Source: Shigella phage ChubbyThor
Length of the DNA stretch: 64,000 bases
Sequence record: OL615013
Reading direction: 5' to 3' (one strand)
Within the stretch, counting starts at the first letter, position 1. Every line of letters starts with the position of its first letter. This document shows positions 1 to 23,922 of the stretch, one piece after another. The translations under genes were made by a program, and so were the position numbers. The notes under the pieces were generated by a model. It did no database searches. It saw only the letters and a list, made by a program, of their open reading frames with translations, and had not been told where the DNA came from.

Positions 1-518
1 AAGATCTCAACCGCGAACGGGATCTTGGCCTCGTTGGAGTTCATATGGTCATACTGCTCTGCCGCCATCTCCCAATAGATGTGGCCGAGGTATGAATCAA
101 ACCGGATCGCCAGGGCTTCCTGCAACAGGGTCGGGATGTTGTTCATCTCGTCCTTGCGCTTCTCATCCCCATAGATGTTGACGGCGGTCTTGATTGCGTT
201 ATGTACAGCCTTTTGCCGCGCCCAGGTCTCTGTTTCCTTCGCCAGCCACTCTTCATTGAAGGTGTTGTCGTTGATGTTCTCCAGGGCAGATACTGCCTGG
301 TCAAACACATATTCGTTCAGCTTTGTCCGTTCAAGAATGATAGACAGTGCTTCGATGGACGGGCGGGCATTGTACTCTGCGGCATAACTGTCAATCAGGC
401 CAAAGATAACCTTTTCGCCTTCGTTGTCAAAATAATCGGCTTTCAGGTACGGCAGGATCTTTCTTTGATAATCTTCATTGTAAATCAACTGTGAAAGCAC
501 GACAGATTCGAGTAACAT
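1..518 (-). CDS. 41: DnaB-like replicative helicase gp41, N-terminal portion (rest of gene lies beyond window start)
   Basis: Minus-strand frame from ATG at ~518 reads MLLESVVLSQLIYNEDYQRKILPYL... and ...DSYLGHIYWEMAAEQ, collinear with T4 gp41 N-terminus; open to position 1; absent from ORF track only because truncated. Confidence 0.7.
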   Translation of the reverse strand, partial: MLLESVVLSQLIYNEDYQRKILPYLKADYFDNEGEKVIFGLIDSYAAEYNARPSIEALSIILERTKLNEYVFDQAVSALENINDNTFNEEWLAKETETWARQKAVHNAIKTAVNIYGDEKRKDEMNNIPTLLQEALAIRFDSYLGHIYWEMAAEQYDHMNSNEAKIPFAVEI

Positions 519-524
519 TGGCAA

Positions 525-905
525 CTACCCCACCAAAAATTTATTGTATTCCTGAGCATTACGCTGCATGAGGGTTACAAGGATATCCCCTGTCACCTCA
601 GTGAACAAGTCATTTTCTTTCAAATTCACAAACATCAGACGTAATGGTTTCTTCAATATATCGGTCACGAAAGACAGGCGGGGTTCGCCGTCCACTTCGT
701 TGATGGCAACCTTGCCGAACCGGAATTGAACGCCACGGAATTTGCCAGAAGTGATCTTGATGATCGCCAGCTGATCAGCACCAGGGTCGATGATTGTGTA
801 GTTATTGGGGGAGTTGCCTCCCCCTCCGTTGTCACTCGGATGTGTTGATAACATGGTCCATTTGCTCCAGCATGTTCGCAGGCATAACAGTACCGTTAGA
901 AACAC
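525..905 (-). CDS. hypothetical protein; start uncertain (internal Met at ~854 or later)
   Basis: ORF track 126 aa; 5' part overlaps uvsX 3' end and contains a GC hairpin; no recognisable motif. Confidence 0.3.
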   Translation of the reverse strand: MFLTVLLCLRTCWSKWTMLSTHPSDNGGGGNSPNNYTIIDPGADQLAIIKITSGKFRGVQFRFGKVAINEVDGEPRLSFVTDILKKPLRLMFVNLKENDLFTEVTGDILVTLMQRNAQEYNKFLVG

Positions 906-1917
906 CGAACATCTTCTTCACGTCATCGGCGAAGTCGACATTCTCCAGCAGCGGATACCAGAAATCATCATCCATCTGACGCTTCTGATATTTCTTTTCC
1001 TTCTCAGGATCGAAGCCGCCCTTGGCTGTACGCACATACCAGCCGGAAGACGGCATATCAACGTAACCCAGAGCACGAGCGATCTCAAGCAGGCCGCTCC
1101 AGCGGTCAATACCACCGTCGTACAGCACCGTCACAGGGAGCTTGGCTTTCTCTTTGACATGGCGACCTTTCATGATGCCGATGTTGAAGTTCCAGCCCAG
1201 CAGATCTTTGTCTTCCTTCACCTGAGAACGGGTGATGAACCAGATCAGGTTAGACGACAGGAAGCCCTGCTTGCCGCCTTTGATGTTAGGCTCGGCATAG
1301 ACGTTGCCGATCTCGTCATAGTAGGAGTTGATCCACACCAGAACGAGTTCTTTGCTGTTGATTTCGGGAGTAATGACACGCCAGAAGCTGTTGAGGGCAC
1401 GGGCACGGGTCATATCCTGTGTATCTTTACCAGCGATAGCGTCTTCAACTTCTTTGGTAGACGGCAACTGGCTGATTGAGTCGATGAACACGATGACCTT
1501 GTCACCCTTCTTGACTTCCTGAAGGATTTGCAACAGGCGGATCTTGGTCTGCTCAACGTTGTCAATCGGCACGTACAGGACGCGATCCATGTCAATACCC
1601 ATAGACGTCCAGTAATCGGCGTTGGCACCTTTCTCAGAGTCCGCGAAGATACACAGGGCATCAGGGAACTTGTCCATATACGCCTTGACATCTACCAGAC
1701 CGAACATCGTTTTGAAGGTACGGGAATCACCCACCATCATCTTGATACCGGAGATCAGGCCGCCGTCAATACGCCCGGACCAGGCGATGTCGATCAGGGG
1801 AATACCAGTAGAACAGATGATAGACGGTTCCAGAGCGTCTGATTGGGACAGCACTGAAGCCTGGTCGTCATGTTTCTTGGCAACCTTCAGCATGCGGTCC
1901 ATTAATGAACTGGCCAT
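832..1917 (-). CDS. uvsX: UvsX RecA-like recombinase
   Basis: 361 aa; RecA-fold ATPase core (GIPLIDIAWSGRIDGG..., VIVFIDSISQL, acidic C-tail) collinear with T4 UvsX. Confidence 0.9.
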   Translation of the reverse strand: MASSLMDRMLKVAKKHDDQASVLSQSDALEPSIICSTGIPLIDIAWSGRIDGGLISGIKMMVGDSRTFKTMFGLVDVKAYMDKFPDALCIFADSEKGANADYWTSMGIDMDRVLYVPIDNVEQTKIRLLQILQEVKKGDKVIVFIDSISQLPSTKEVEDAIAGKDTQDMTRARALNSFWRVITPEINSKELVLVWINSYYDEIGNVYAEPNIKGGKQGFLSSNLIWFITRSQVKEDKDLLGWNFNIGIMKGRHVKEKAKLPVTVLYDGGIDRWSGLLEIARALGYVDMPSSGWYVRTAKGGFDPEKEKKYQKRQMDDDFWYPLLENVDFADDVKKMFGVSNGTVMPANMLEQMDHVINTSE

Positions 1918-2444
1918 TTCACTTCCTCTTTATTGTTGATCGTCGTTAATAATTCTACACCCATAACCTTCTGGGACAAAATGTTAATCGCCTCTTGGAT
2001 GCTCTTCAGAGACATCATCTCAACAGGCGACGGTGCATCATTATGTCGGTCGGTTAGGTACATATTGCGCAGATTGTTGTAGTTCGTGCGGTTGATGCAC
2101 GCAGCGTTCAGCGCAATATTCAGGATATACATCATCTGTTCAATGGTTACATCCTTCGGCATGGCGTGGATGTAATAGATCGAGCCTTCGAAGTAGACGT
2201 CCAGCAGTTCATCTGGTATCTCGACGCCACCACTGGCATACTCTTCGATCATCCTGAACAGAGACTCTGGTTGCTCGCTGGCGATCTTATGCGTGACAGT
2301 CGCCGAAAGACCATCACCCAGTTTAACAGGCCTGGTGTATTCAGTGATGAATACATTATGACCGCCGCCGATGATGTGCTCGGCGAAATTAGCGGATGCG
2401 TTCGCCGCGTTGTCTGCATGATATGAAACGACGACTGTAAACAT
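1902..2444 (-). CDS. hypothetical protein
   Basis: ORF track 180 aa; no recognisable motif; stop overlaps uvsX start. Confidence 0.45.
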   Translation of the reverse strand: MFTVVVSYHADNAANASANFAEHIIGGGHNVFITEYTRPVKLGDGLSATVTHKIASEQPESLFRMIEEYASGGVEIPDELLDVYFEGSIYYIHAMPKDVTIEQMMYILNIALNAACINRTNYNNLRNMYLTDRHNDAPSPVEMMSLKSIQEAINILSQKVMGVELLTTINNKEEVKWPVH

Positions 2445-2998
2445 TAGAACTCCAGGGTCAGAGGGGTTTCTGCGGACTTGTCGTAATCCGCGCCGCCAGC
2501 AGCACGCAGACGATTGCGATCGTTCTTGCGCTTGTGTGCCAGCATGTAAGTCTCAATATCGATCTCCATGTAAGAACACGCAGCCGACAGGAAGAACATG
2601 AGGGTCTCGACACAAGGTTCGTTCATGAACTGCCCAAGGCGATACGTCACACCGCGATGCCCAACAGCACCCAAAGCAGATGGGGTGAATTCGCGACCAC
2701 CGAGGATTTCGAATTCTTCTTCGATCTCGCCTTTGGTGCGGTCCATAAGGATGAAGCACAGCATGAAGTGTACCACGTCCACCAGTTCATAGACTGCGTT
2801 CGCATGGTCAAACCCGATGTCGTTGCCATAGACCTTCCAGTCGCGGCTGGTTTCGTCAAGGAACTCTGCCCATTCACGATAGATGGAGTTGATGACTGCG
2901 TTCTGACTCCATACATTCTTCCACTCTTCCCCAAAGTAGGCCACGTTGGTGGCCTTTTGGAGTTCGAGCAGGCTTTTGATATGCCCTGCTGTGATCAT
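2444..2998 (-). CDS. 56: dNTP pyrophosphatase, all-alpha NTP-PPase family (T4 gp56 dCTPase/dUTPase-like)
   Basis: 184 aa; ELVDVVHFMLCFIL matches the ELVDIFHFVLNMF core of T4 gp56; EEW/REWAEF acidic helices typical of MazG/dimeric-dUTPase fold; 4-nt overlap with next gene. Confidence 0.6.
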   Translation of the reverse strand: MITAGHIKSLLELQKATNVAYFGEEWKNVWSQNAVINSIYREWAEFLDETSRDWKVYGNDIGFDHANAVYELVDVVHFMLCFILMDRTKGEIEEEFEILGGREFTPSALGAVGHRGVTYRLGQFMNEPCVETLMFFLSAACSYMEIDIETYMLAHKRKNDRNRLRAAGGADYDKSAETPLTLEF

Positions 2999-3564
2999 TT
3001 ACGTTCTCCGTAGAATTTAACGAACGGTGCCCAACCATCAAATGGATTGAGGAATTCGTAGTCCACTTTCATCTCGTCAATGAAAGCCTCTATATCGTCC
3101 TCTATGATACCAGCGCGGTCGGCCTTTGAAATGCGGGTGATAGGACATTTCGTACTCAGCGCCCATTCATATTCCTGAGGGGTGCGCAGATCGCTCACGA
3201 TATAATGTACATGAGGGTTCTGCTCCACCAAAGGAAGCTGGAAGCGCTTGAAGAATGCCAGGAACAGATCGGGCTGCACGTAACGCAAGCCCGTATCGCT
3301 GCCGAGATGGAGCCAGATCTGCCTTGGGGTTAAGCCCTTGGGGTTATCAGGGTGGACGTAAGGAACGTCCTTCACGGCATCCTCTACCTCCGCTGGCAGC
3401 CACGGGTAGATGTAATTGGCAACCCGGCGCAGTTCGTCTGAGAACGAAAGGCGCTGGATATCCATATCACCCTGTAGATGGTGATAGCTGATGAGGGACT
3501 CCAAACAGAAGTCCTTACCGGAGCGCTTGCGCCCCGTAAAGAATTCAAGGTTCGGGTACATCAT
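2995..3564 (-). CDS. 1: deoxynucleoside monophosphate kinase (T4 gp1-like)
   Basis: 189 aa; N-terminal FFTGRKRSGKDF is the GxKRSGKD P-loop of T4 dNMP kinase. Confidence 0.7.
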   Translation of the reverse strand: MMYPNLEFFTGRKRSGKDFCLESLISYHHLQGDMDIQRLSFSDELRRVANYIYPWLPAEVEDAVKDVPYVHPDNPKGLTPRQIWLHLGSDTGLRYVQPDLFLAFFKRFQLPLVEQNPHVHYIVSDLRTPQEYEWALSTKCPITRISKADRAGIIEDDIEAFIDEMKVDYEFLNPFDGWAPFVKFYGERK

Positions 3565-4610
3565 ACCACACCTTCCAGGAACTTAGGATCAACGATCTTG
3601 CGGTCAACTGGAGAATGGGTGAGCGCAATGTTCAAACCATGATCCTGAATCCGGTTCATGTTGATGAGCTTATCGTTCAGTTTGCAGTACAGGCAGTATG
3701 CCATTTGCATGATCAAGCCACGATCAGCATCATATTCCTTCAGGTGGGCGACCACAGTTTCCCACGGGCTACCGATATCACAGTGATGAAGCACACCAGT
3801 GAACAGATTGCGGATATGGTTCTGGTTGGTCACGTTCTTGAAGTGAATCATGGAGTTGATGAACCCAGCTTCTACTTTGGTGTCCTTCGTGATCTTGCCC
3901 AGCTGCTTCTGGCTGACTTCATTGTTATAGTAATGAAGATTGTTAGAGAAGAGCTTGTACTGGCCGACATCAACATCCAGCACCTGAGCAATCACTTCCT
4001 GAAGAATAGAGAACTCAATGAAGTTGATTGAACTCATACCCCACAGAACATCCTGTGAGCGGTTGATGACCGTCAGGTTCAGACGACCTTCAACGATGGC
4101 GAACAACAGAGCCAGGTTACACACCATGTCTTTAGTCTTCGCTTCGCCGCTCTCGCTGAACTTCGCCAGACCAGCATCTGAATCTAGAGCCGGATCATAG
4201 ATGGTGAGGTACGCCTGACGGGTGTTTGGGTTCTTGCGCAGACGGTTGATGACGCTATCCAGCTGGCCATGGGCGTACAGACGCGGACCATAAGCGGCTC
4301 GCCATGTGTGGCCGTTGTCGGAAAAGTTGGCGGCGCGGGGCAACACGCGGGACAGGAAGCGAACGTCATCGCGCCCGGACAGAACCCAGAAGGTCTCGCC
4401 GATGGCAGCGATAGCCGATGAGTTACGGCCTTCAACGGAAAGCCAGCGGTCACGGATGTCACTGACGGTGATAGTCACACCATCAAGGAATCGGGTGCCG
4501 TCCGTGTTGATCTCCGCATTACCAGGATCAGATTCAATTCCGTATTCGCGGATAGCCAAGACAGCCTGCTTCAGCATGTCATTGTTGTTAATTGCTTTGA
4601 TTTCCATCAA
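3561..4610 (-). CDS. thymidylate-synthase-family deoxypyrimidylate C5-hydroxymethylase/methylase (dUMP- or dCMP-modifying)
   Basis: 349 aa; TS core blocks recognisable: RQAYLTIYDP (cf. RRIIVSAWNV), DMVCNLALLF (catalytic Cys region), RSQDVLWGMSSINF (cf. RSCDVFLGLPFNIA), NNLHYY (cf. GDTHLY); ~100-aa N-terminal extension. Confidence 0.75.
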   Translation of the reverse strand: MMEIKAINNNDMLKQAVLAIREYGIESDPGNAEINTDGTRFLDGVTITVSDIRDRWLSVEGRNSSAIAAIGETFWVLSGRDDVRFLSRVLPRAANFSDNGHTWRAAYGPRLYAHGQLDSVINRLRKNPNTRQAYLTIYDPALDSDAGLAKFSESGEAKTKDMVCNLALLFAIVEGRLNLTVINRSQDVLWGMSSINFIEFSILQEVIAQVLDVDVGQYKLFSNNLHYYNNEVSQKQLGKITKDTKVEAGFINSMIHFKNVTNQNHIRNLFTGVLHHCDIGSPWETVVAHLKEYDADRGLIMQMAYCLYCKLNDKLINMNRIQDHGLNIALTHSPVDRKIVDPKFLEGVV

Positions 4611-5281
4611 TCAATACTCCCAAAATCACGACAGAGGAATGCCATTACAGCCTGGTCTACTGTTAGACCGTGAGACTTCATCATACCTGCGGCCACCGTA
4701 GGGAACAAGCCTTTATGGCGCTGGCGATGGTCTTGAACACGCTCCCACTTCTCTACCACGAGGCTCTCATTGAAGTCCGCACCGCCGTTACGTGATTTAA
4801 CACGGGCTATGCAGGTTTCAAGAGGGGTGTCCATGAAGAGAACAACCAGTTCGCGCGGTGGGCGCGTCAGGCGGGGGATCCAGGAACTCAGTAGAGTTGA
4901 AGGGATGATGCCTTCGAAGATCACATCGTATACCTGATATTCAGGTAGATCAGCGATGCTCAGGGCGAATAGCATTTGTTCGGTATCCTTCAGGGAATCA
5001 ACCCCCTTGGACTTTGACTTGTCATATTTGCCGATACACACCACGTTGAATGACGGGCAGACCGTCAACATAATCTTGCCATCATGCGTCACAACATACG
5101 CCTGAGGATCCCTCTCCGCCAGCTGAGACGGTACGGTGGATTTGCCGCTACCATTGGATCCTTTGACGTAATAGAGTTGCCCTCGTGCTGGGTAGATCCC
5201 CTTTACGACAGGCGGTTTAATGAATGTGTGGACGGGGCGCTTGAGCAACCCCTTGAGGGAGTAGGACATAGACTGCTCCAA
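4607..5281 (-). CDS. P-loop kinase, polynucleotide-kinase-like; candidate modified-base (5-hmdU) DNA kinase
   Basis: 224 aa; Walker A YYVKGSNGSGKST resembles T4 PseT kinase domain P-loop; basic lid region ARVKSRNGG; overlaps TS-family gene by 4 nt. Confidence 0.5.
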   Translation of the reverse strand: MEQSMSYSLKGLLKRPVHTFIKPPVVKGIYPARGQLYYVKGSNGSGKSTVPSQLAERDPQAYVVTHDGKIMLTVCPSFNVVCIGKYDKSKSKGVDSLKDTEQMLFALSIADLPEYQVYDVIFEGIIPSTLLSSWIPRLTRPPRELVVLFMDTPLETCIARVKSRNGGADFNESLVVEKWERVQDHRQRHKGLFPTVAAGMMKSHGLTVDQAVMAFLCRDFGSID

Positions 5282-5287
5282 TAAACA

Positions 5288-5318
5288 AAAGGAGCTGCTA
5301 TTATAGCAGCCCCTTCAT
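5288..5318 (-). terminator. intrinsic terminator hairpin (GCUGCUAUAAUAGCAGC) followed by U-run on minus-strand RNA
   Basis: Perfect 7-bp palindrome gctgcta-tta-tagcagc between stop of 5344..6210 gene and kinase start; U-tract on minus strand. Confidence 0.55.
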
Positions 5319-5343
5319 CTATTGAACAGCTTCTGAACTTAAA

Positions 5344-6210
5344 TTACGCGGCAGCTTTCGCTTCGGCCAGCGCCTGAGGCAACCAGGCGTTGATTGCTTT
5401 GACCAGAGACTCGGCATCGGCCTCTTTGATCTTCTGGCGTTTGGTGAAGGACTTGCCGTTCACGTACAGACTGAAGCCCCAGCCACCGGAAACGATAGGC
5501 GCGACGTCAACGTATGTGTTGGTGCGGGCATGCAGGTTTTCAGGGTTGGCCAGTTCGGTGACCGGGAACTGGAACCAGCGCATGTCTGGGTTCACGTAGC
5601 TCAGGAACACACCTGGGACAACTCCTGCTTCAATCGCAGCCAAGACCGGACCGTGGTTAGAAGCGCGAGCCGCGTCAACCATTTCTTCACGTTTGGTATG
5701 ACGGCGTTTACGCTCTTCCAGCGCCGCCTGCGGGGTCAGGGTCTTACCCTTCGCCGCTTCTTTCAGCATAGAAGACGCCAGGGAACCCACTTTCGCGTCG
5801 GACGGCTGATTACCTTCTTCCAGCGCTGCGTTGACTGCGTCTTTAACCGCGTCTACCGGGGCGTCGGACACTGGGGCTTCACCTGCGTCGGCGTTACCAG
5901 CACCAGCGGTTGCGTCGGCGGAGATCGGCGCTTCAGCAACAACGGTTTCAGCGTCTTTCAGGGATACTTCAGCGTGGGCTTGCTCTTGGGCTTGCGCCAG
6001 AGCCTGCTGAGTTTCTTCCTTCTCTTCAGCGCTCAGACCTTCAATCAGTTCGAATCCGTTGGCGGACTGAAGAACGCCTTCCACCATACGGCGCAGGGTA
6101 ACGTTGCCGATCATCAGGCCTGCTTCTTTGATTTCAGCCTGGATAGCCGTAACGTCTTTGCCTTCAATTTCAATTTTGGTTCCAGAATCTACATGAAGAA
6201 TATATGACAT
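5344..6210 (-). CDS. Ala/Glu-rich low-complexity protein, function unknown
   Basis: ORF track 5344..6312; likely true start MSYILHVDSG at ~6210 (upstream codons are leader); own promoter and terminator. Confidence 0.5.
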   Translation of the reverse strand: MSYILHVDSGTKIEIEGKDVTAIQAEIKEAGLMIGNVTLRRMVEGVLQSANGFELIEGLSAEEKEETQQALAQAQEQAHAEVSLKDAETVVAEAPISADATAGAGNADAGEAPVSDAPVDAVKDAVNAALEEGNQPSDAKVGSLASSMLKEAAKGKTLTPQAALEERKRRHTKREEMVDAARASNHGPVLAAIEAGVVPGVFLSYVNPDMRWFQFPVTELANPENLHARTNTYVDVAPIVSGGWGFSLYVNGKSFTKRQKIKEADAESLVKAINAWLPQALAEAKAAA

Positions 6211-6280
6211 AATAAAAACCCTTTCGTTATTAAGACCGTCTTCGCGGCATATTGCTGTTCTGACCGTGTAGTGAGAACAT

Positions 6281-6309
6281 AATATACTGCATTTTTCATA
6301 AATGTAAAC
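6281..6309 (-). promoter_or_regulatory. T4-type early (sigma70) promoter: GTTTAC-17 nt-TATATT
   Basis: Minus-strand reading GTTTACatttatgaaaaatgcagTATATT with A/T-rich UP-like tract upstream; ~70 nt 5' of the 6210 start. Confidence 0.55.
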
Positions 6310-6422
6310 CACTTTTTATTGAAAAGAAGTTTACACCTTAGTGTTAAACCGCGCCCAGCCAAGCGGAGCGCGAACTTGCGTGAATATTAACTTTCAACGT
6401 CAGTATTGAAAACAAGTTTCAG

Positions 6423-7166
6423 TCACTTGTTCAGCAAGTAGAAGTTGGGGATGTCTTCTGAATATTCAGCTGGCGTGAACTCCAGTTTCACTTTGGCTTC
6501 GACGTTTTCCCGAACTTTGCGAATAACTTCTTCCCTTTGTTCAGTGGCCATGACTTCTTCAATCGCGCCGTACAGAGTTTCAACAATCACGCTGATGTAA
6601 TTGTGAATCGCCCGACAGGTGTTCTGGTCATATTCCATGTCTGGGTCAATCTTCAGTTCAACCTGATCACGCCCAACCAGCAAATGCCCGTTAGACACAT
6701 TCACGGTGTGCTTGAACACATCACTCGCTTTCATGGACACGCCATCAGCCTGCGCCAGGTAAAACTCAGTCTTGGAGAACTGCTCCAGAACATCGGCAGG
6801 GAAATCGATTTGAATATCACTACGGTGGCGGCCAAGGTAATACAAGCAATGTGAAAGTCTGAGACACGCTTCTTGTGCCATCTTCACATGGGATTTTGCG
6901 TGTTCGTATCCAGCCAAGACATCACGCAAAAAGTCTGCGATTTCCTGGCTCCCATACTTGACCTGATCTTCTAAATCCAAGGCAGTAGGGCTATCCCACT
7001 CAACGCCCAAGACATCCAAGATGTTTTGTTCACGGACAGATTTACCCTGACGATTAAACCCCAGAGTGCACCCCACTTCAAACCCGGTTGGTTCAAAGGT
7101 GGTCAGTTTCACATCAAGACGAGCTGGAGTGAAATCTAGCCCGAACAGACGATAAATTTGTGACAT
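6423..7166 (-). CDS. hypothetical protein
   Basis: ORF track 247 aa; no recognisable motif. Confidence 0.45.
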   Translation of the reverse strand: MSQIYRLFGLDFTPARLDVKLTTFEPTGFEVGCTLGFNRQGKSVREQNILDVLGVEWDSPTALDLEDQVKYGSQEIADFLRDVLAGYEHAKSHVKMAQEACLRLSHCLYYLGRHRSDIQIDFPADVLEQFSKTEFYLAQADGVSMKASDVFKHTVNVSNGHLLVGRDQVELKIDPDMEYDQNTCRAIHNYISVIVETLYGAIEEVMATEQREEVIRKVRENVEAKVKLEFTPAEYSEDIPNFYLLNK

Positions 7167-7228
7167 GTTATAGCCTCATTGTTTAGGATTACCCGTTCAT
7201 GAATTATCCCTCGGAACGGGTTATAGAA

Positions 7229-7933
7229 CTATTTCTTCTTATGCATCCGACGCGCATCTTTCCAAACAGACATCTGACTCTGTTTCTGGAAGCGAGCGGT
7301 GCGCATGAAGAGGACGATCTCCCAGTACTGTGGCTCGATCTCATAGAGCTGAGTGCGGAAGCGGTCGGCGCGGTACAGCTTCACACAGTGATTGTACAGC
7401 GGGTGGTTGGCAAACCGCTTCAGAGCATCCCAAGTGAGCTTCAGACGCGTCTTTGAGCGGTACGCCCGTTCGTTGCGCAACTTGATGAGATCTTCGAACA
7501 CTAACAGCCTGAGCTTCGGTGGGAGGTAATGCATGTTCAGTCCCCAGAGGTATGTCACGCCCTTCTCTCCAAAGGTGATTCCATCACCCTTGGCAAAGTT
7601 GAAGAAGAACACCAGAGGATACATATCCCAGTACGGCAGTTCGTCCTTCGTCAGAGCATCGTATTTGAAATAGAACATGCGCCCGACCATATACCGCACA
7701 CCCTGTACGGGACGCTTGTGATCAGCGAACGCCTGTTTCATATGGTTGGGAGTCAGGTTGGCGTCCTTAGACACACGCTCCATGAACCACACATGCGAAC
7801 GGCGGATGTTGCGCTTCGCCTCTGGACCGAAGTGTTGGCGGTACTTTCGGATGTATCGCTTGACGAGTTCAGGGGCGTCCATCTCGGCCGGAAACAGCAA
7901 CGGATCTTCTTCGCCAGCTGCATTCTTTGCCAT
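7229..7933 (-). CDS. hypothetical basic protein
   Basis: ORF track 234 aa; Lys/Arg-rich C-terminus; no recognisable motif. Confidence 0.45.
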   Translation of the reverse strand: MAKNAAGEEDPLLFPAEMDAPELVKRYIRKYRQHFGPEAKRNIRRSHVWFMERVSKDANLTPNHMKQAFADHKRPVQGVRYMVGRMFYFKYDALTKDELPYWDMYPLVFFFNFAKGDGITFGEKGVTYLWGLNMHYLPPKLRLLVFEDLIKLRNERAYRSKTRLKLTWDALKRFANHPLYNHCVKLYRADRFRTQLYEIEPQYWEIVLFMRTARFQKQSQMSVWKDARRMHKKK

Positions 7934-7944
7934 TTGTCAACTCC

Positions 7945-7952
7945 TATAAATA
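7945..7952 (+). promoter_or_regulatory. T4-type late promoter TATAAATA
   Basis: Exact TATAAATA ~35 nt upstream of the GTG start at 7987; the window encodes gp55. Confidence 0.6.
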
Positions 7953-7986
7953 ACAACAGTTATCTTATTTAAGTGGAGTCCTCACC

Positions 7987-8931
7987 GTGGAAGACTATCG
8001 CAATTTTATCACACAGATGTTACAGCGGGGCTTGTCACGCAAGAACCGCTTCAGAGTGACCATCCCTCTGCCACCAGGGATCTTTGACTCCAATGCCACT
8101 CTGGCTAATGACGGAAAGGCGTACAGCACCAATTCATCTTTCGGTGACTTGTTTAAGCAGTCAGCCCGTATTGTAAACGCTTTCTTTGGAGGGACAAACC
8201 AGACTTCCCGTTCCCTTCAGATGATGTGTATGGTTGCCTCATTGCCGGGGGTTGGTATTGACACCACCCCAATGACGAACAACGGCAACCACATCAAGAT
8301 GCCGAACAACAAGTCCAACGTCGACCTCGACCTGTCATTCTTGTTGGCTAATGACTATTACGAGAAGTCTGTGATGGACAAGTGGAAGAGTCTGATCTTT
8401 GATCCATACACTACCAAGATGGGCTATTACGAAGACTTCGTCACCGACATCTGCATTGAGCAACTTGATACTGAAGATCAGGTGGTCCACCGCGTCTACA
8501 TCGTCGAGGCTCATCCGATCAACTTCAGTTCCATCGAGTTGGACAAAGGTGCTACAGATCAGTTCAACCAATACAACATCTCTTTCTCTTACAACAAAGT
8601 GCTATCGGAGACAGAATATGAAACACGCAGCCTTTCCAGCGATTTTCTTCCTCTCGGTATTGCTGACGCTCTTACCAGTGGTGACTGGGAAACTGCGGCC
8701 TCAAAAGCCGGACAGCTTTATCGGAAAGTCAAAGAAGGAAACTTCACAGGAGAGGCTCTCCTGGCTTACAAACAGCTTGACCAACTTGTAAACAACCTGG
8801 CTGGGATCAGCCTACAGGACTTCGAGCGCATCTCGGTGGGTATCTCTCGTGACATCATGGGCAACGATAACCTGACGGCGGCGGAGAAGACAAGCCTGTT
8901 GGGGATATTGCAAGATGTGATGGGCAAATAA
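7987..8931 (+). CDS. virion structural protein, tail-tube-family baseplate protein (gp48/gp54-like), late gene
   Basis: 314 aa; N-terminal NRFRVTIPLPPG resembles the opening beta-strand motif of T4 tail-tube family; late promoter upstream; plus-strand island. Confidence 0.4.
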   Translation: MEDYRNFITQMLQRGLSRKNRFRVTIPLPPGIFDSNATLANDGKAYSTNSSFGDLFKQSARIVNAFFGGTNQTSRSLQMMCMVASLPGVGIDTTPMTNNGNHIKMPNNKSNVDLDLSFLLANDYYEKSVMDKWKSLIFDPYTTKMGYYEDFVTDICIEQLDTEDQVVHRVYIVEAHPINFSSIELDKGATDQFNQYNISFSYNKVLSETEYETRSLSSDFLPLGIADALTSGDWETAASKAGQLYRKVKEGNFTGEALLAYKQLDQLVNNLAGISLQDFERISVGISRDIMGNDNLTAAEKTSLLGILQDVMGK

Positions 8932-8955
8932 AAAGCCCTCCGAAGAGGGCTTTTT
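8932..8955. terminator. bidirectional intrinsic terminator (aaaAGCCCTCcgaaGAGGGCTttttt)
   Basis: 9-bp GC stem with A-run 5' and T-run 3', between convergent genes ending at 8931 (+) and 8958 (-). Confidence 0.75.
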
Positions 8956-8957
8956 CA

Positions 8958-10004
8958 TTAGTTAGACTTGAGATACTGCTCGAAGTCGTCAATGGAAGCC
9001 GTGTTCTTGGCATCCGGTGTAGACTGAGACTGAATTTGAGTCTGAGTCTGTGACGGCGCGGCCTGCTGTTGTTTCAGGCTGTCTTGAGCAGTTGGCTGCT
9101 GGTTGACGGGCTGCTGGTGAGCAGTCTGGGTGTTAGGGGCATGTGCCATCGTGGCCGCACCACCTTCAACCAGAGGCTGGCCATCAGGGATTGCCAGAAC
9201 TTTACGCAGACGCTTTTCCAGAGAGTCGTAGTCTTTGAAGTTAGCCGGATTGAAGAATTCAAACAGGCTGTGTTCACGAGACCACACGTCTTCCATGTAG
9301 GCTTCGTCGTCGCTCAGTGGAGCCGGAGCAGCCCAACTGACGTTGGAGAAGTTGGCCACCAGACCTTCCCAGTTCCCAAACTTCTTCTGCTCACCAAAGA
9401 GCTTCAGGTTCAGGTTGGCACCTTCCCACAGATCGAACGGATCGAATTTAGGGTCGGTTGGGAATTTCGGGTTCTGCGCCTGATCCAGGATTTTCTTGAT
9501 GGCGTTACCAAACTCCAGCAGGAAGACCTTGCCGTTGTTTTCCGGTACGTTGGCATCGTTGATCACCAGGATGTTGGCGTAGTATTTGGTGTCAGGCAGA
9601 CGTTTCTTCAGGATGTCCTTCAGCTTTTCGTCGTTCGTTTCTTTCTGCTGCGCCCACAGCGGACGGTCATGGTCGCGCACCGGATCGTCGTTGCCGAACG
9701 TCTGAGGTGAGTTCTCAATGTACCAACCACCAGGTCCCTGGAACTGATGCTTCATGATCATGGCGCAAGGGGTCAGGATCTGATCTTTATCGATCGTTCC
9801 TTCTTCCTGTGCCTTGATGTCTACCAGTGGGACTGGCAGGAAGCGGATGGTGTTCTCGGAGATGCCATCTTTGTTCCAAGTCCATTTCCAGATGCGAGGA
9901 TCCTTCTGGAAGCCGGACTTCTGGCCTTGCTGTGCAAGACGCGCCTGCATTGCGTCAGCTTGCTGACCACGGGACGCTTTCAGACGATCGAATAAATTAC
10001 CCAT
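8958..10004 (-). CDS. 32: single-stranded DNA-binding protein gp32
   Basis: 348 aa; IRFLP, YYANILV, PENNGKVF, LWEGANLNLK blocks collinear with T4 gp32 (IRFLP, YWANILV, PENEGKVF, CPWEGANF); acidic Gln/Ser-rich C-tail. Confidence 0.85.
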   Translation of the reverse strand: MGNLFDRLKASRGQQADAMQARLAQQGQKSGFQKDPRIWKWTWNKDGISENTIRFLPVPLVDIKAQEEGTIDKDQILTPCAMIMKHQFQGPGGWYIENSPQTFGNDDPVRDHDRPLWAQQKETNDEKLKDILKKRLPDTKYYANILVINDANVPENNGKVFLLEFGNAIKKILDQAQNPKFPTDPKFDPFDLWEGANLNLKLFGEQKKFGNWEGLVANFSNVSWAAPAPLSDDEAYMEDVWSREHSLFEFFNPANFKDYDSLEKRLRKVLAIPDGQPLVEGGAATMAHAPNTQTAHQQPVNQQPTAQDSLKQQQAAPSQTQTQIQSQSTPDAKNTASIDDFEQYLKSN

Positions 10005-11131: not shown

Positions 11132-11721
11132 TATACACCTCTGTTGAAGTCTGGATTATTCTCAATGAAGTAAGAGCCACAAGCCATTATCGCAAACGAA
11201 TCCACGAGGTCATCGATTGGCTTGGGATCCTTAACTTCCAACATGTCCATTATACCGCGCATATTAACATTGAACAGCGACTCGAAGTGAGCGATCATGG
11301 CGTGTTTATCCGCGTTGCCCTTGTCGGTGAACATCTTCTTCACATGGGATGGCGTCACGATCTGGAAGTCGAAATTGTTACGGCGCAGGGCTTGCTTCAA
11401 CAGAGAGGTATTCTCTGCGGTCTGGCAGATGTTGTTGGAGTTCTTAGAGTTGCCCATGGCATACCCTTCAAGAGTGATCGCATCCGGCTTCTCGGTCAAC
11501 AGGACAGCCTCAGCCCATTTACAGATGTTATAGAAGCGCTCTTCTGGGGTCTCCCACTTCGGCTGCTTCATGATGAGGATGTTCTGGCGAATCTGAGTGC
11601 AGTACTTCTCCACAGTATAATATGCGTAGAAGCGCAGATGATCAAAATCAAGAGGGTCCTTGTCATCCCAGAAGCACAGGGATGGGCAACCATAGGAGTA
11701 GTCGATTCCGCAATATTTCAT
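11131..11721 (-). CDS. RuvC-like Holliday junction resolvase (RNase H fold)
   Basis: 196 aa; MKYCGIDYSYG (first catalytic Asp), ITLEGY (Glu), ...DDLVDSFAIMA (C-terminal acidic pair) in RuvC order. Confidence 0.5.
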   Translation of the reverse strand: MKYCGIDYSYGCPSLCFWDDKDPLDFDHLRFYAYYTVEKYCTQIRQNILIMKQPKWETPEERFYNICKWAEAVLLTEKPDAITLEGYAMGNSKNSNNICQTAENTSLLKQALRRNNFDFQIVTPSHVKKMFTDKGNADKHAMIAHFESLFNVNMRGIMDMLEVKDPKPIDDLVDSFAIMACGSYFIENNPDFNRGV

Positions 11722-18523: not shown

Positions 18524-20812
18524 TTATACAACACAGCTATCGCACTGAGTTTCCTCAGCCTGCTTCAGCTCTTCGTCTTCCTTGGCGTCCTTGTTTGTGT
18601 TGTAATACAGAGTCTTGCCACCCCACATATAGAACGACAGGATATCCTGCATCATCTTGGCGCGAGGGATCTTGCCATCTGGGTACTTCTCTGGGTCATA
18701 CCACGTGTTGGTACTGATGGACTGGTCAACCCAGCGCTGGATGACAGCAGCGGTCTTCAGGTACTCAATGCAGTCCAGGTCCCACTTGAGGTCATACAGC
18801 GGTCCAAGGGTCTCTACATCCGGAACAACCTGCTTGTATGCTCCGTCCTTGCTTCCTTTGACGCTCACCAAGCCCTTCGGTGGCTCAATGCCGTTCGTTG
18901 CGTTGAGGACTTGTGAGGAGCTTTCGGTAGGGGCTACCGCCAACAGAGTGGCATTGCGGATACCATAGGTCTTCAGGTCATCCTTCAGCTCATCCCAATC
19001 CAGCCCGTATGCCAGCCCTTCCGGCTTCTTACCATTTGGCAGGATGTCGAGTGGAAGCGGCTGAAGATCGGCGGTGACCTGCCCATTATTGTGGATGGTT
19101 CCGCGTTTACAAGCCCCGAACTTCATAGCCAGACGGTTGGATGCTTTGACCAGATAGAAGTGAAGGTGTGCCATCCACGCATCCAGCATCTCGAGGCCAG
19201 CTGGTGAACCGTAGCCCGTGAAGTTCTTGGCCAGGAAGTGAGCCACGTTCACGATACCAACACCCAGAGGACGATAGTCTTCAACAGCTTTACGAGCCTG
19301 AATCGCTGGATAGTCCTGATATTCCAACAGCATGTCCAGCGCAGACACCAACACGAACGCCACGTCTTCCATTTCCGTAGGATCTTCGAACGCCGTCAGG
19401 TTAAAGGAAGCCAGGGTACACAGAGCCACGCGTCCGTTTTCATCGTTGTACTGCTCGAACTCACGGGTCGGCAGGGTGATTTCAAGACACAGGTTGGAGC
19501 TGTAGATGGTGTCGAGGTTGAATGGGCTGTATTCATTCATGTGATCGACAAATGCGATGTAGATGCGGCCTGTGTCTGAACGCTGGTCTAACAGCATCTG
19601 GAACACTTCTTCGGCCTGCAGCTTCTTAGAACGAACCAGGCCTGCATCGGCGGCCTTGATCATGTTCTCATACAGAGTACGGAACTTGTCAACGTCGGCG
19701 AAGTATGCTTCGTACATTTCGCGGTTGTCTTTCGGGTCGAACAGATACAGAGGCTGCTTGGCAACCAGGCGCTCAAACATCACGCGGTTGATCTGAATAC
19801 CGTAGTCGATACGGCGTTCGCGGTTTTCTTCAGTGCCACGGTTATTCTTCAGTACAACGACGTCATCGAACTGGTAATGCCACAGAGGGATGTACGCTGT
19901 CGCCGCACCACCACGAATGCCGCCCTGGGAGCACGACTTGAGCGCCCCAGTGAGATACTTGATGAATGGGATCAGGCCTGTGTGAACCATCTCTCCACCG
20001 CGAATAGGACTGCCAATCCCACGGATAGCCCCGACGTCAAAGCCGATACCCGCACGTTTGGACACATAGTCAACGATGGTCTTGGCCGTTGCGTTGATAG
20101 AGTCCAGGGTGTCACCAGTTTTGATCAGGACACAGGAACTGAACTGACGGGTAGGAGTACGAACACCTGCCATAATCGGGGTGGGAAGACTGAACTTGCC
20201 TGTGCTGGCATATTCATAGAACTTCTTCACCATCTCCAGGCGGCTGTCTTTGTCCCAGTTAGAGAACAACGCCATGGCGATGCCCATGTACATGACCTGT
20301 GGGGTTTCGTAGAAGATCTTGCTGTCTTTCTTGGAACGGTCGCGCAGCAGATACTTCTCTGTCAGCTGGCCCATGGCCGCCCACGTGAAGTTCTTATCGC
20401 GTTTGTGGTTAATGACATCGTTCAGCTCGTTGAACTCTTCGGTCGTGTAGAGATCAAGGAACTCACGATCATACACGCGCTGTTTGATGTTCTTGACGAA
20501 GATATCCAGCAGGTGAGGCGGCTTGTACTGGCCATAGACAGCCTTGCGCAGATCATATGACTTCAGACGAGCAGCCACATACTGGTAATTGGGTTTGTCT
20601 ACAGAGATCAGTGAAGCCGCAGCCTGGATGAGGATATCCTGAATGCGATCTGTTCTCATGTTGTCGGTGAACTGAATCTTCGATGCAGCGATTACCTCTG
20701 ACATTGATACACCAGTCAGGCCGTCACATGCGCGGTCTACGACTGCGTGTAGTTTCTCAATATCAAAGGGGACAGAAGATCCGTCACGTTTAATAACGTT
20801 AATTTCGCTCAT
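18524..20812 (-). CDS. nrdA: ribonucleotide reductase class Ia alpha subunit NrdA
   Basis: 762 aa; ATP-cone N-terminus, SNLCLEITLPT active-site loop, C-terminal CxxC...C tail. Confidence 0.9.
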   Translation of the reverse strand: MSEINVIKRDGSSVPFDIEKLHAVVDRACDGLTGVSMSEVIAASKIQFTDNMRTDRIQDILIQAAASLISVDKPNYQYVAARLKSYDLRKAVYGQYKPPHLLDIFVKNIKQRVYDREFLDLYTTEEFNELNDVINHKRDKNFTWAAMGQLTEKYLLRDRSKKDSKIFYETPQVMYMGIAMALFSNWDKDSRLEMVKKFYEYASTGKFSLPTPIMAGVRTPTRQFSSCVLIKTGDTLDSINATAKTIVDYVSKRAGIGFDVGAIRGIGSPIRGGEMVHTGLIPFIKYLTGALKSCSQGGIRGGAATAYIPLWHYQFDDVVVLKNNRGTEENRERRIDYGIQINRVMFERLVAKQPLYLFDPKDNREMYEAYFADVDKFRTLYENMIKAADAGLVRSKKLQAEEVFQMLLDQRSDTGRIYIAFVDHMNEYSPFNLDTIYSSNLCLEITLPTREFEQYNDENGRVALCTLASFNLTAFEDPTEMEDVAFVLVSALDMLLEYQDYPAIQARKAVEDYRPLGVGIVNVAHFLAKNFTGYGSPAGLEMLDAWMAHLHFYLVKASNRLAMKFGACKRGTIHNNGQVTADLQPLPLDILPNGKKPEGLAYGLDWDELKDDLKTYGIRNATLLAVAPTESSSQVLNATNGIEPPKGLVSVKGSKDGAYKQVVPDVETLGPLYDLKWDLDCIEYLKTAAVIQRWVDQSISTNTWYDPEKYPDGKIPRAKMMQDILSFYMWGGKTLYYNTNKDAKEDEELKQAEETQCDSCVV

Positions 20813-20871
20813 TTATATTTCCTGGATTTATTGGTGAATGAACTCCACCCCAATAATAAACTCTTCGGGGC

Positions 20872-21531
20872 TTATTGACTTACAAACTCTAACCACTCTG
20901 GGTCGGCTTTGGGATTCCACCCAGATTTAAATTTATTAATCATTGTGAAATGCGGAGTCGTCTTGTTTTTGAACCCAAACGCTTTCGCCATGAACGTGCA
21001 ACCTTTTTGGTTGCACAACCACCAATCATAATATTCGTCGGCGCGTTTCCATATATCCAAAGACTCTTTGGTGGCATGGTTACTTTCCCAAGGTTGTTTT
21101 ATCACGCAGATATTGTTTTCCTTCAAACGTTTAGACTGTATTTCCCGCAAATGAGGATACTTTACATGTGTCTGTTTCATTTGATCGGAACGAATTTTCC
21201 TCAAATTAGGGTTGTCTTTGTACATCTGTTTATTGGAATGAGAAAGTTTTCTCCGCAACCAACCGAATAATTTGTTACAAGATCTACCGGAGAATTCATT
21301 GTTTACGCACATAGCATTAGCTGCAAATGCTAATTTGAAATTTTTGGGATATATTTTGACTAACAATTGATGTGCCAAATAATGTTCTTCTGGTGTCAAC
21401 TCCACCAGATTATGTTTGTCATCTTTCCCTCCCATACATCTAGGGATAATATGGTGGGTTTCAGAATAACCAACCAATGAACGGGTCTTGGCTCTTTGTA
21501 TCAGAGAGTCATAGATATTTTGATAATTCAT
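20872..21531 (-). mobile_element. free-standing HNH homing endonuclease gene
   Basis: 219 aa; ETHHIIPRCMGG...HN...EEHYLAH HNH motif; AT-richer than flanks; sits between nrdA and phoH. Confidence 0.7.
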
Positions 21532-21600
21532 GATTAGTCTCGGAACATATTATACGCCGCCCTCGTAGATTGAAGGCGGCGGGGAGTGTTGGTGAGTTAC

Positions 21601-22443
21601 TTAAATGTCGTACAGATCGTTGACTTCCAGCATCAGGCGGGTGAAGTCACCACGCCCGTTGCGGTCGGACTTGTCGAATTCGATGATACTGAACGGCTGG
21701 ACCCATTCAGGGTACTCATCACCGACACCAACACCATCGATCTTCAGAGTTCCGGCCTCCAGCTTGGCGTTGAAGTCGCGGAAGGAACCGACGTACCTTT
21801 CCAGGGCGCTATCACGCAGGCGCTTGTTGGACTGTTTGATGTCACCGTTGACAAAGATGTAGGTTGAATCAGATGCGCGGGTCAGCAGGTTCTTCAGCTG
21901 CTCCATATCGCATTCTTGGGCTTCTTCGATGATCAAGAAGGTGTCGTCAAAGGTCATCCCCTTGATGGTCTCCAGATCCTGGATCTCGATGATCCGCTTC
22001 TCCCACAGGTAGTTGAAGAAACCGTCGCTGCCAGTATCGGTCTTCAGCACCTTCTTCAACGTCTGAATCAGGGGCATCAGGTATGGCATGAGCTTTTCGT
22101 ACGTGTCGCCAGGACGGAAGCCTGCTGTCTGACCTGTTGGCAGCGGAGAGCGCGTGATGACGATCTTGCTGACAACTTTATCGATCAGTAGCTTGGCGGC
22201 GGCTGAGGCACCACAGTACGATTTACCTGTACCAGCAGGACCGATCGCGATGGTGAGGTTTTCTTCAAGAGCAGATTGATATGCGAGGTTCTGATTCTCT
22301 GAGAGGCCATTGAACGGAGCGATTCTAAAGTCACCTTTGGAGAACTTCATCCAGTCATCTTCTTTCTGAACAGTCTCCTTCTTACGTGCTGACTTGGTCT
22401 TGCCCGCTGGCTTCATACTTACAACTTTGGTGGCAGATTGCAT
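21601..22443 (-). CDS. phoH: PhoH-like ATPase
   Basis: Walker A IAIGPAGTGKSY and PhoH-type C-terminal blocks; start taken at internal Met (~22443). Confidence 0.8.
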   Translation of the reverse strand: MQSATKVVSMKPAGKTKSARKKETVQKEDDWMKFSKGDFRIAPFNGLSENQNLAYQSALEENLTIAIGPAGTGKSYCGASAAAKLLIDKVVSKIVITRSPLPTGQTAGFRPGDTYEKLMPYLMPLIQTLKKVLKTDTGSDGFFNYLWEKRIIEIQDLETIKGMTFDDTFLIIEEAQECDMEQLKNLLTRASDSTYIFVNGDIKQSNKRLRDSALERYVGSFRDFNAKLEAGTLKIDGVGVGDEYPEWVQPFSIIEFDKSDRNGRGDFTRLMLEVNDLYDI

Positions 22444-22522
22444 GGGAACCTTCCTATATCTCAGGGGTGTCATCAACCTTAATTAAGGCGACACACCCAG
22501 CATACCCGAGGGGTGGATAAAG

Positions 22523-22544
22523 AAAAAGGCCGTTTCCGGCCTTT
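22523..22544 (-). terminator. intrinsic terminator (GGCCGgaaaCGGCC + U-run on minus RNA)
   Basis: Between endolysin stop and phoH start. Confidence 0.6.
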
Positions 22545-22547
22545 GAG

Positions 22548-23360
22548 TTAACTGAAACTCTTGTATGCAGCAGCGAGCTTCGTGTCGTACTGGTTCTTGG
22601 CATACGCCGGACCATTATAGCGCCGCGCAAACTCAGCCCAGTTCTTGTCCTTCAGAGCCTGCCAGAGCTTGGCGTCGGCCTTGATGAACTTCACGAATGC
22701 CATCAGATGAGCACGTTCGCCCGTCAAGAAGTCATTGAACATCTCCTTGGCGTTGGCGTACCCACAGACCTGGCAGTTGAAGCCCATGATCTGGAAGAGG
22801 CCGTAAGAGGCGCTCTCGTACGCACAATCCTCGTCGATGTTAATGGCTGCATGGAGTCGATCCAACTCCGCGTCGCCGCCCGTGTACCCGCCTGCCACTG
22901 GACTGACAAGGGTTGGATACATTTGACCAGCCGCGTTCGCCCGAGCCTGCCCGAACTTCGCCATCATCTTCTTGTACATGATGTGACGCTCAAACAACGT
23001 CTTGATCTTACCAGACTTGGTGAAGCCAGTGCCACGGGATTCAACCTGATTGACTGCCTTCACAGAGGCGAGGTCAACTCCCAGCTGGTTGGCTGCGTCG
23101 ATAAGGTCAGCCTCAGTCAGGTGATCCTGATGGGCGTCTCCGGCGTTGCGAATAGCATAGGAGGTCTTTGGACCCACAATACCATCAATGACAAGCCCCG
23201 CACCCGCCTGAACAGTCTTGACAGCGTTCTCTGTTGCCTTACCAAAGATGCCGTCAGCGACGAGGGTGAAGCCGATTTTGTTGAGGCTCTGCTGAAGTGA
23301 TTTGACTTCAGTGCCACGGTTGCCAAGTTTTAGAATGGCCATAAGAAAATACCTCCGCAA
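22548..23360 (-). CDS. endolysin: two N-terminal peptidoglycan-binding repeats plus C-terminal N-acetylmuramidase-like domain
   Basis: 270 aa; repeats GFTLVADGIFGKATENAVKTVQ / GLVIDGIVGPKTSYAIRNAG; catalytic region GLFQIMGFN. Confidence 0.75.
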   Translation of the reverse strand: MRRYFLMAILKLGNRGTEVKSLQQSLNKIGFTLVADGIFGKATENAVKTVQAGAGLVIDGIVGPKTSYAIRNAGDAHQDHLTEADLIDAANQLGVDLASVKAVNQVESRGTGFTKSGKIKTLFERHIMYKKMMAKFGQARANAAGQMYPTLVSPVAGGYTGGDAELDRLHAAINIDEDCAYESASYGLFQIMGFNCQVCGYANAKEMFNDFLTGERAHLMAFVKFIKADAKLWQALKDKNWAEFARRYNGPAYAKNQYDTKLAAAYKSFS

Positions 23361-23893: not shown

Positions 23894-23922
23894 GGTAATC
23901 TCCTACCAAAAATCTGAATGAG

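Follow-up and report, generated by a model that had tools for sequence, protein, structure and literature searches.

The window analyzed here is a stretch of 64,000 nucleotides from the genome of Shigella phage ChubbyThor (sequence record OL615013), and this report concerns a chain of overlapping genes near its start. Four consecutive open reading frames (ORFs) were present on the minus strand at positions 2444-2998, 2995-3564, 3561-4610, and 4607-5281, as a first-pass annotation of the sequence had described. In the order of transcription, they encode a predicted 5-hydroxymethyldeoxyuridine (5-hmdU) DNA kinase, a predicted hydroxymethylase with the thymidylate synthase (TS) fold, a deoxynucleoside monophosphate (dNMP) kinase, and a nucleoside triphosphate (NTP) pyrophosphatase of the dimeric all-alpha dUTPase family. 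The motifs GSNGSGKST, GRKRSGKD, and ELVDVVHFML were all found in the translations. We estimate a probability of about 0.9 that positions 2444-5269 of the minus strand constitute a conserved module of the Ackermannviridae, which makes 5-hydroxymethyl-dUTP and starts the post-replicative hypermodification of thymidine. The genes are translationally coupled. The 4-nt overlaps of the ATGA type that had been reported for all of the junctions were found at 2995-2998 and 3561-3564, but not between the kinase and TS-like genes. This junction reads GAT TGA TGG. When the TS-like gene starts at the ATG at 4607, as it does in phage ViI, the overlap is 1 nt (TGATG); a 4-nt overlap would require the TTG at 4610.

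The first gene of the chain (4607-5269, minus strand) encodes a protein of 220 amino acids, for which the predicted activity of a 5-hmdU DNA kinase (5-HMUDK) is supported by its family membership and by orthology with a characterized enzyme. The protein matched the Pfam family PF18748 (HMUDK_HMUD1) with an E value of 3.2e-107 and 356.9 bits against a cut-off of 27, and residues 18 to 212 covered positions 1 to 195 of the 196 in the family model. It also showed 87.7% identity over 220 of 220 residues with ViI gp67, and the two genes share the same flanking genes, making them syntenic orthologues. ViI gp67 phosphorylates 5-hmdU within DNA in vitro (PMC8989533). The longest ORF of the kinase begins at a TTG at 5281, but the ATG at 5269 is most likely the start, because it is preceded by GGAG 6 nt upstream and yields a protein of 220 residues, as in ViI gp67. 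The enzyme had been called a polynucleotide kinase-like P-loop kinase. The P-loop (Walker A motif, GSNGSGKST) is present, but no polynucleotide kinase family was matched above the threshold (only phrog_505, at 3.5e-4), and the enzyme resembles polynucleotide kinases only in the general P-loop kinase fold. The P-loop region weakly matched AAA_33 (24.5 bits, below the cut-off of 27), and the search of PDB sequences with the kinase returned nothing useful, with one chance-level match to the P-loop of CFTR.

The second gene (3561-4607, minus strand) encodes a TS-fold enzyme of 348 amino acids and is predicted to be a dUMP hydroxymethylase. The protein matched PF00303 (Thymidylat_synt) at 4.5e-16 and phrog_3676 at 1.6e-185, and it showed 77% identity with the ViI protein annotated as thyA (060c). 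Against the seven thymidylate synthase equivalogs of NCBIfam it scored 19 to 57 bits, where the cut-offs are 108 to 427 (the best was 57.5 against 327). By these sequence scores, the enzyme is not a canonical TS. In the PDB search, the best match was MilA, the CMP 5-hydroxymethylase of mildiomycin biosynthesis, at 4e-17 with the single sequence and 1e-55 with the family profile, whereas TS reached 2e-31 at best. The AlphaFold2 model of the enzyme had a pLDDT of 93.6, and the top Foldseek matches were again MilA structures, with TM scores of 0.75 to 0.81 over about 345 columns, compared with only about 240 to 260 columns for TS structures. The N-terminal extension of about 100 residues that had been proposed was not borne out, as the profile alignments to TS and MilA start at residues 7 to 16 or so. 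The extra residues, about 110 in number, form a C-terminal helical region (residues 238 to 348, approximately) which is common to MilA.

The catalytic and substrate-binding positions were then compared with E. coli TS. The residues E71, Y106, C163, R183/S184, D186, N195, H225, and Y227 correspond to E58, Y94, C146, R166/S167, D169, N177, H207, and Y209 of the E. coli enzyme, respectively. C163, R183, D186, H225, and Y227 are invariant in the alignment of the TS-like family, whereas S184 is not. The asparagine in the segment SINF, which the first-pass annotation had read by eye as a base reader of the uracil type pending a proper alignment, is N195. The profile alignments to TS and MilA confirmed this residue, which aligns with N177 of E. 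coli TS and with the cytosine-reading aspartate of MilA and is kept in at least 90% of the 36-member family alignment. The family has one extra loop residue near N195, and pairwise alignments to T4 gp42 are consequently shifted by one position. Together with published work on related phages, these features lead us to predict that the enzyme is a dUMP hydroxymethylase. Kutter et al. 2011 (PMC3184105) placed the TS-like proteins of CBA120, ViI, and AG3 together with dUMP hydroxymethylases from SPO1, phiW-14, and YuA. They considered the protein a probable dUMP hydroxymethylase adjoining a dNMP kinase, and reported that CBA120 did not incorporate 3H-thymidine. The enzymes acting later in the pathway also require DNA that contains 5-hmdU, which supports the prediction indirectly. 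Among distant relatives of the TS-like protein (35 to 45% identity in the core), many are 490 to 600 residues long, implying fusion to an additional domain, and one carries PF05014 (nucleoside 2-deoxyribosyltransferase). The genomic context of a distant homologue in Ralstonia phage RP13 showed no adjoining kinase and was uninformative.

The third gene (2995-3564, minus strand) encodes a dNMP kinase of 189 amino acids, which is predicted to phosphorylate 5-hmdUMP. Residues 1 to 184 matched phrog_139 (deoxynucleoside monophosphate kinase) at 4.2e-47, and the protein showed 91% identity with ViI dnk (059c). A T4-like kinase with the motif GxKRSGKD had been proposed; the family and the P-loop (GRKRSGKD, compared with GVKRSGKD in T4 gp1) held, but the likeness to gp1 was insignificant beyond the P-loop. 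The fourth gene (2444-2998, minus strand) encodes the dimeric all-alpha dUTPase-family NTP pyrophosphatase of 184 amino acids, a predicted dUTPase/dTTPase. Its residues 7 to 166 matched positions 2 to 158 of the 162 in PF08761 (dUTPase_2) with 33.4 bits against a cut-off of 22.9, and it also matched phrog_173 at 3.3e-40. In the alignment with the Campylobacter dimeric dUTPase (1w2y), E42, E45, E71, and D74 each fall opposite an acidic residue, and the identity with ViI 058c was 62%. The description of this protein as gp56-like was right about the all-alpha superfamily and the ELVDxxHF motif but not about a likeness to T4 gp56 beyond the motif. Pairwise BLAST against gp56 aligned only a 17-residue segment, ELVDxxHFxL, at differing positions in the two proteins (E = 0.005), and the term holds at the superfamily level only. 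By analogy with T4 gp56, the dUTPase has been suggested to double as a dTTPase (Kutter et al. 2011, PMC3184105).

In addition to the four genes, we examined the window for the enzymes that act later in the pathway. The first-pass annotation had proposed that a hidden Markov model search of the large ORFs at 54137-58445 would reveal the pyrophosphorylase and pyridoxal phosphate (PLP) enzyme components. The former was found at 56271-57494 (minus strand) as an orthologue of ViI gp160 (aGPT-Pplase1, now named HMUDK_hel), with a match to PF18723 at 4e-82 and 88% identity with the ViI protein, but the PLP enzyme is not in the window. No orthologue of the amino-acid:DNA transferase, the PLP decarboxylase, or the second kinase (gp247, gp226, and gp243 types, respectively) was found within the 64 kb. 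Salmonella phage SKML-39 carries all three, with identities to ViI of 92% for gp226 (PALP), 85% for gp243 (PF18747, HMUD2), and 87% for gp247 (PF18724, ADDT, at 4e-59). In vitro, ViI gp247 attaches serine to the phosphorylated base, and decarboxylation of the resulting product by gp226 gives 5-(2-aminoethoxy)methyldeoxyuridine (5-NeOmdU) (PMC8989533). Lysates of five ViI proteins (gp67, gp160, gp226, gp243, and gp247) reconstitute 5-NeOmdU, and liquid chromatography-mass spectrometry (LC-MS) showed that this nucleoside replaces about 40% of thymidine in ViI, CBA120, CBA6, and 1.255.O (PMC5889632).

These results suggest the following pathway. The all-alpha pyrophosphatase would hydrolyze dUTP, and probably dTTP, to the monophosphate, excluding the canonical dTTP and dUTP from phage DNA and supplying dUMP. 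The TS-fold enzyme, using Cys163 and methylene-tetrahydrofolate, would then convert dUMP to 5-hmdUMP instead of dTMP; this step is proposed from the position of the enzyme in its family, the uracil reader Asn195, and the chemistry of related phages. The dNMP kinase would form 5-hmdUDP, which the NDP kinase of the host would convert to 5-hmdUTP, and the phage polymerase would place 5-hmdU in DNA at the positions of thymidine. The 5-hmdU DNA kinase would next phosphorylate the hydroxymethyl group on a fraction of the 5-hmdU in DNA to give 5-phosphomethyldeoxyuridine (5-PmdU), as shown for the 88%-identical ViI gp67. Finally, a serine:DNA transferase of the gp247 type (ADDT) and a PLP decarboxylase of the gp226 type, encoded elsewhere and acting with a second kinase of the gp243 type and the helical protein of the gp160 type, would convert 5-PmdU to O-serinyl-thymidine and then to 5-NeOmdU. 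The locus had initially been read as a T4-like base-replacement scheme to which an extra DNA-level kinase was added, marking thymidine hypermodification derived from 5-hmdU. This reading is supported by the membership of the kinase in PF18748, its orthology with ViI gp67, and a TS-like enzyme that is nearest to a hydroxymethylase and has an asparagine of the uracil type.

Three other explanations of the locus were weighed. The same pathway could lead to 5-PmdU and then to a final base other than 5-NeOmdU, with another amino acid or a polyamine as the donor. The amino-acid:DNA transferase family uses glycine, serine, or putrescine, depending on the phage, the nearest relative has a transferase with 13% of its residues different from ViI gp247, and the literature searched held no chemical analysis of Agtrevirus DNA. 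Nevertheless, identity with the ViI enzymes is 87% for the SKML-39 transferase and 92% for its PLP decarboxylase, and the far more distant Vibrio phage 1.255.O shares the 301-Da nucleoside of ViI. Moreover, Lee et al. 2018 (PMC5889632) list SKML-39 and AG3 in their Table 1 as 5-HMUDK phages and explicitly predict 5-NeOmdU for them. A different final base thus has only a slim chance. Still less probable is a pathway that ends at plain 5-hydroxymethyluracil (hmU) DNA, as first proposed for CBA120, with a different role for the kinase. Kutter et al. 2011 (PMC3184105) did judge further modification unlikely from restriction patterns, but later LC-MS found 5-NeOmdU, and not 5-hmdU, in virions of CBA120, CBA6, and ViI. 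All five downstream genes are also kept at 84 to 92% in the nearest relative, and the kinase is strongly conserved, with 88% identity across subfamilies.

The remaining explanation takes the RefSeq labels at face value, with an ordinary thymidylate synthase beside a small terminase subunit and no base replacement. The labels "thymidylate synthase" and "terminase small subunit" are annotated in SKML-39, ViI, and many relatives, and the kinase matched phrog_800, labeled "terminase small subunit," at 2e-70. This model has 511 positions, of which the kinase matched 3 to 220 and the gp160 orthologue 368 to 472. It appears to represent fusions of a kinase with a helical domain, as in SP10 gp186, and to be mislabeled, which probably explains the RefSeq label on the kinase gene in ViI, SKML-39, CBA120, and many others. 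The genuine small terminase gene adjoins that of the large terminase elsewhere in ViI and SKML-39. The PF18748 match of the kinase at 3e-107, the scores of the TS-like protein far under every TS equivalog cut-off, and the demonstration that ViI gp67 is a DNA base kinase leave this explanation a close to negligible probability.

Several points weigh against the assignment of the module to 5-hydroxymethyl-dUTP synthesis and thymidine hypermodification and keep its probability near 0.9. Hydroxymethylation cannot be told from methylation by the sequence of the TS-fold enzyme, and the dNMP kinase had no match above threshold in Pfam, NCBIfam, or PDB. The relatives carry two further MazG-like pyrophosphatases, either of which is a candidate for the dTTPase. 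The transferase, decarboxylase, and second kinase are attributed to ChubbyThor from its nearest relative, SKML-39. About 60% of the thymidine in ViI virion DNA is ordinary thymidine, and the promoter of the chain, described below, is assigned from a motif match. A literature search for chemical analyses of Agtrevirus DNA found none, only a review that inferred the modification from gene conservation; for ChubbyThor, the modification chemistry is predicted from its genes.

The module was compared with known systems. The closest characterized counterpart is ViI (Vi01), in which the four genes 058c to 061c (dUTPase, dnk, "thyA," and gp67) correspond to those of ChubbyThor and are arranged in identical order and orientation. 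They have the same neighbors, with the ACT-like gene 057c and uvsX downstream and 062c upstream, and the promoter/terminator hairpin upstream has the same core as in ChubbyThor. ViI belongs to Kuttervirus in the Cvivirinae, whereas ChubbyThor belongs to Agtrevirus in the Aglimvirinae; the GC content of the window is about 50%, compared with 44.5% reported for the kuttervirus CBA120 (PMC3184105). ViI has been characterized experimentally, whereas the ChubbyThor isolate is known from its genes.

The T4 pathway to hydroxymethylcytosine (the dCTPase/dUTPase gp56, the dCMP hydroxymethylase gp42, the dNMP kinase gp1, and the alpha- and beta-glucosyltransferases) follows the same logic of pool editing, hydroxymethylation of a dNMP by a TS-fold enzyme, a dNMP kinase, and decoration at the DNA level. 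The TS-like family aligned to T4 gp42 with an hhalign probability of 98%, but the target base is uracil/thymine in ChubbyThor (Asn195) and cytosine in T4 (Asp179 of gp42). The DNA-level step also differs, being phosphorylation followed by amino-acid transfer in the ChubbyThor pathway and glucosylation in T4, and the three nucleotide genes are dispersed in T4 but contiguous and overlapping in ChubbyThor. The closest solved structure, MilA (PDB 5jnh and 5b6d), shares the C-terminal helical extension; however, it acts on CMP and has an aspartate at the base-reading position, where the TS-like family has a nearly invariant asparagine, and the identity is about 20%. SPO1, phiW-14, SP10, the Pseudomonas phages M6 and YuA, and PaMx11 have the same pre-replicative scheme (dUMP hydroxymethylase, dNMP kinase, dTTPase/dUTPase, and dCMP deaminase), and the 5-HMUDK gene of thymidine hypermodifiers likewise lies close to the hydroxymethylase gene. 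The final bases of the hmU and hypermodifier phages differ and include hmU, putrescinyl-thymine, glutamyl-thymine, 5-NedU, and 5-AcNmdU. The post-replicative genes form one cluster in M6 but are scattered over at least four loci in the Ackermannviridae.

The gene chain extends beyond the four genes that had been taken for a complete operon. A fifth gene at 1902-2444 (minus strand), which is translationally coupled to the pyrophosphatase gene and overlaps the stop of the latter with its start (TAATG), continues the chain, and the next co-directional gene, at 832-1917 (minus strand), encodes a UvsX-type recombinase, the equivalent of which is annotated as DNA repair protein or uvsX in SKML-39 and ViI. 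A minus-strand scan found no terminator between this fifth, ACT-like gene and uvsX, nor any terminator-like site or hairpin from 5287 to the window edge at position 1. The four genes are probably the first part of a longer transcription unit running into the ACT-like gene and uvsX. The fifth gene encodes a phage ACT-like domain protein of 180 amino acids (PF24021, 3.5e-80), with 56% identity to ViI 057c, and its homologues with source names all come from Ackermannviridae phages. The N-terminal 95 residues or so were modeled confidently as a beta-alpha-beta-beta-alpha-beta unit of the ACT/ferredoxin-like fold, and the matches to ACT domains were weak. No match was found in the fold search with this model at E ≤ 0.001 or in the PDB sequence search. 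The invariant C-terminal tail of the protein (…EEVKWPVH) was modeled poorly.

The order of genes in the first 5,300 nt or so of the window (primase-helicase, a small ORF, uvsX, and the hydroxymethylase with a DNA-level modifying enzyme) parallels the T4 order 41-40-uvsX-segA-beta-gt-42 (T4 20612-26219). In both phages, the hydroxymethylase gene lies near uvsX and gene 41 and beside that of a DNA-level modifying enzyme. It appears that the T4 and ChubbyThor lineages carry the base-modification module at equivalent positions in the genome.

Upstream of the kinase gene, we examined the hairpin that had been regarded as the terminator bounding the operon at about 5290-5318. A strong hairpin with a T-run was present at 5316-5288 (minus strand), with a 13-bp stem containing 6 GC pairs and the tail TGTTTATT, but it lies 5' of the operon and is the intrinsic terminator of the upstream gene at 5344-6312. 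The extended hairpin folds with -35.1 kcal/mol (z = -5.6), and its stem reaches the GGAG Shine-Dalgarno sequence of the kinase gene (5276-5279). In phage Magnus, the corresponding site carries annotations of a terminator and a ribosome-binding site. The same hairpin contains a promoter-like motif, TTCAAT-N15-TATAAT, at 5300-5326 (minus strand); the -10-like TATAAT lies inside the loop, which reads TATAAT(A), and TTCAAT is located 15 nt upstream. We counted 4 copies of the pattern TTCA[AT]T-N12-17-TATAAT in the window, where 0.05 were expected, and 11 in ViI, where 0.5 were expected; every copy in the two sequences is co-directional with a gene and 20 to 50 nt upstream of its start. A motif of this form, TTCAAT[N14]TATAAT, has been published for viunalikeviruses (PMC7283392).

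The CTATAAT core of the loop is invariant across five genera, and the stem covaries in phiMAM1. The intergenic region at the kinase gene is 90.5% identical to that of ViI, compared with 63 to 87% for the flanking genes. The hairpin lies only about 19 nt from the kinase start, leaving no room for a separate promoter between them. On the evidence of the motif, the operon is probably transcribed from this TTCAAT-N15-TATAAT promoter, which lies within the hairpin that terminates the upstream gene. The terminator and promoter would then be superimposed, and transcripts begun past the loop would lack the 5' arm and leave the Shine-Dalgarno sequence free. A scan for the generic sigma-70 consensus missed the promoter, as its -35 element agrees with only 3 of the 6 positions of TTGACA. 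No Rfam family was matched at gathering thresholds within positions 1-10000, and the hairpin therefore belongs to no curated RNA family.

When the window was searched by sequence for repeats of the hairpin, only the element itself was returned, but a structural scan for TATAAT loops found a second copy at 57541-57517 (minus strand). This hairpin, AACAGAGGC-TATAATG-GCCTCTGTT followed by a T-rich tail (TTTCGTATT), lies directly upstream of the gp160 orthologue, and an identical copy is located in ViI at 88702-88678. The intergenic region upstream of gp160 is 92.8% identical to that of ViI, compared with 83.3% for the gp160 gene. In ViI, hairpins of this kind, with TATAAT in the loop and a T-rich tail, were observed at 88678-88702 (gp160), 148138-148157, and 32672-32697; they precede the gp243-gp247 cluster and gene 053c as well. 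These hairpins and the one at 57517-57541 of the window all have TTCAAT or TTCATT 13 to 16 nt upstream, and they look like superimposed terminators and promoters. Three further minus-strand copies of TTCAAT-N-TATAAT precede gene starts in the window, at 11249-11274, 21549-21574, and 52405-52429, the last directly after a terminator-like hairpin at 52454-52429.

It is conceivable, but in our judgment doubtful, that the hairpin-embedded TTCAAT...TATAAT elements form a switch shared by the hypermodification genes and that the ACT-like protein is a small-molecule-sensing partner of the hmdU nucleotide enzymes. In such a switch, read-through transcripts would be terminated or have their Shine-Dalgarno sequence sequestered, and those begun within the hairpin could be translated, in the manner of the T4 lysozyme gene e. 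The literature consulted on these phages discusses neither a hairpin switch nor an ACT-like regulatory partner. The TATAAT-loop hairpins were also considered as a strict mark of hypermodification genes, and this was rejected: in ViI, the motif is also found ahead of nrdA, a MazG-like gene, and other early genes, and the unrelated gene 053c has one of the strong hairpins in front of it.

Next, we examined the relationship of the window to other phage genomes. Region 2300-5400 showed 98.7% nucleotide identity with SKML-39 (NC_019910) and 96.9 to 98.1% with Shigella phages MK-13 and Ag3, with the same gene content in all of them, and the segment matched 270 phage records. By sequence identity, the window is assigned to Agtrevirus (Ackermannviridae, Aglimvirinae). 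The best record matched a 25-kb internal segment at 97% identity over 86% coverage and no deposited genome was identical to the window, by which ChubbyThor is classed as a new isolate of a known genus. In Salmonella phage CRW-SP2 (OR464140, 101682-101872), an unclassified member of the Aglimvirinae, the hairpin and the hydroxymethylase gene are kept and the gp67-type kinase gene is missing, with a 24-codon remnant ORF where it would lie. CRW-SP2 is a natural variant that may rely on the second kinase (gp243 type).

The gene cluster has already been described in ViI-like phages (Ackermannviridae) and is ordinary for the family. Kutter et al. 2011 (PMC3184105) assigned the genes for the TS-like protein, dNMP kinase, and dUTPase in CBA120, ViI, and AG3 to an hmdU pathway, and a 2024 review describes the modification genes as conserved throughout the Ackermannviridae; the locus adds no new biology to what Kutter et al. 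2011 and Lee et al. 2018 and 2021 reported. Its value lies mainly in annotation. In the agtreviruses SKML-39, Ag3, and MK-13, most of the public labels read "terminase small subunit," "thymidylate synthase," or "hypothetical protein," in place of which the annotations 5-hmdU DNA kinase, dUMP hydroxymethylase, and dNMP kinase, respectively, are proposed. Thymidine hypermodification shields phage DNA from many restriction enzymes, and protection from CRISPR-Cas and other nucleases has been speculated. About 60% of the commercially available endonucleases are ineffective on 5-NeOmdU DNA. Since the hypermodification cluster is recognized in ChubbyThor, its DNA is predicted to be hard to cut, clone, or engineer.

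Two further genes lie near the gp160 orthologue. The gene at 57564-58445 (minus strand) encodes a MazG-like pyrophosphatase (phrog_2144, 5.8e-129) with 59% identity to ViI 131c and no Pfam match, and it is an alternative candidate for editing of the dNTP pool. On the other side, 54137-56155 (minus strand) is a single ORF of 672 amino acids (phrog_1735), which is also present in SKML-39. Its ViI equivalent consists of two coding sequences, Vi01_128c and 129c, both noted as orf00158, which suggests a split or frameshifted gene.

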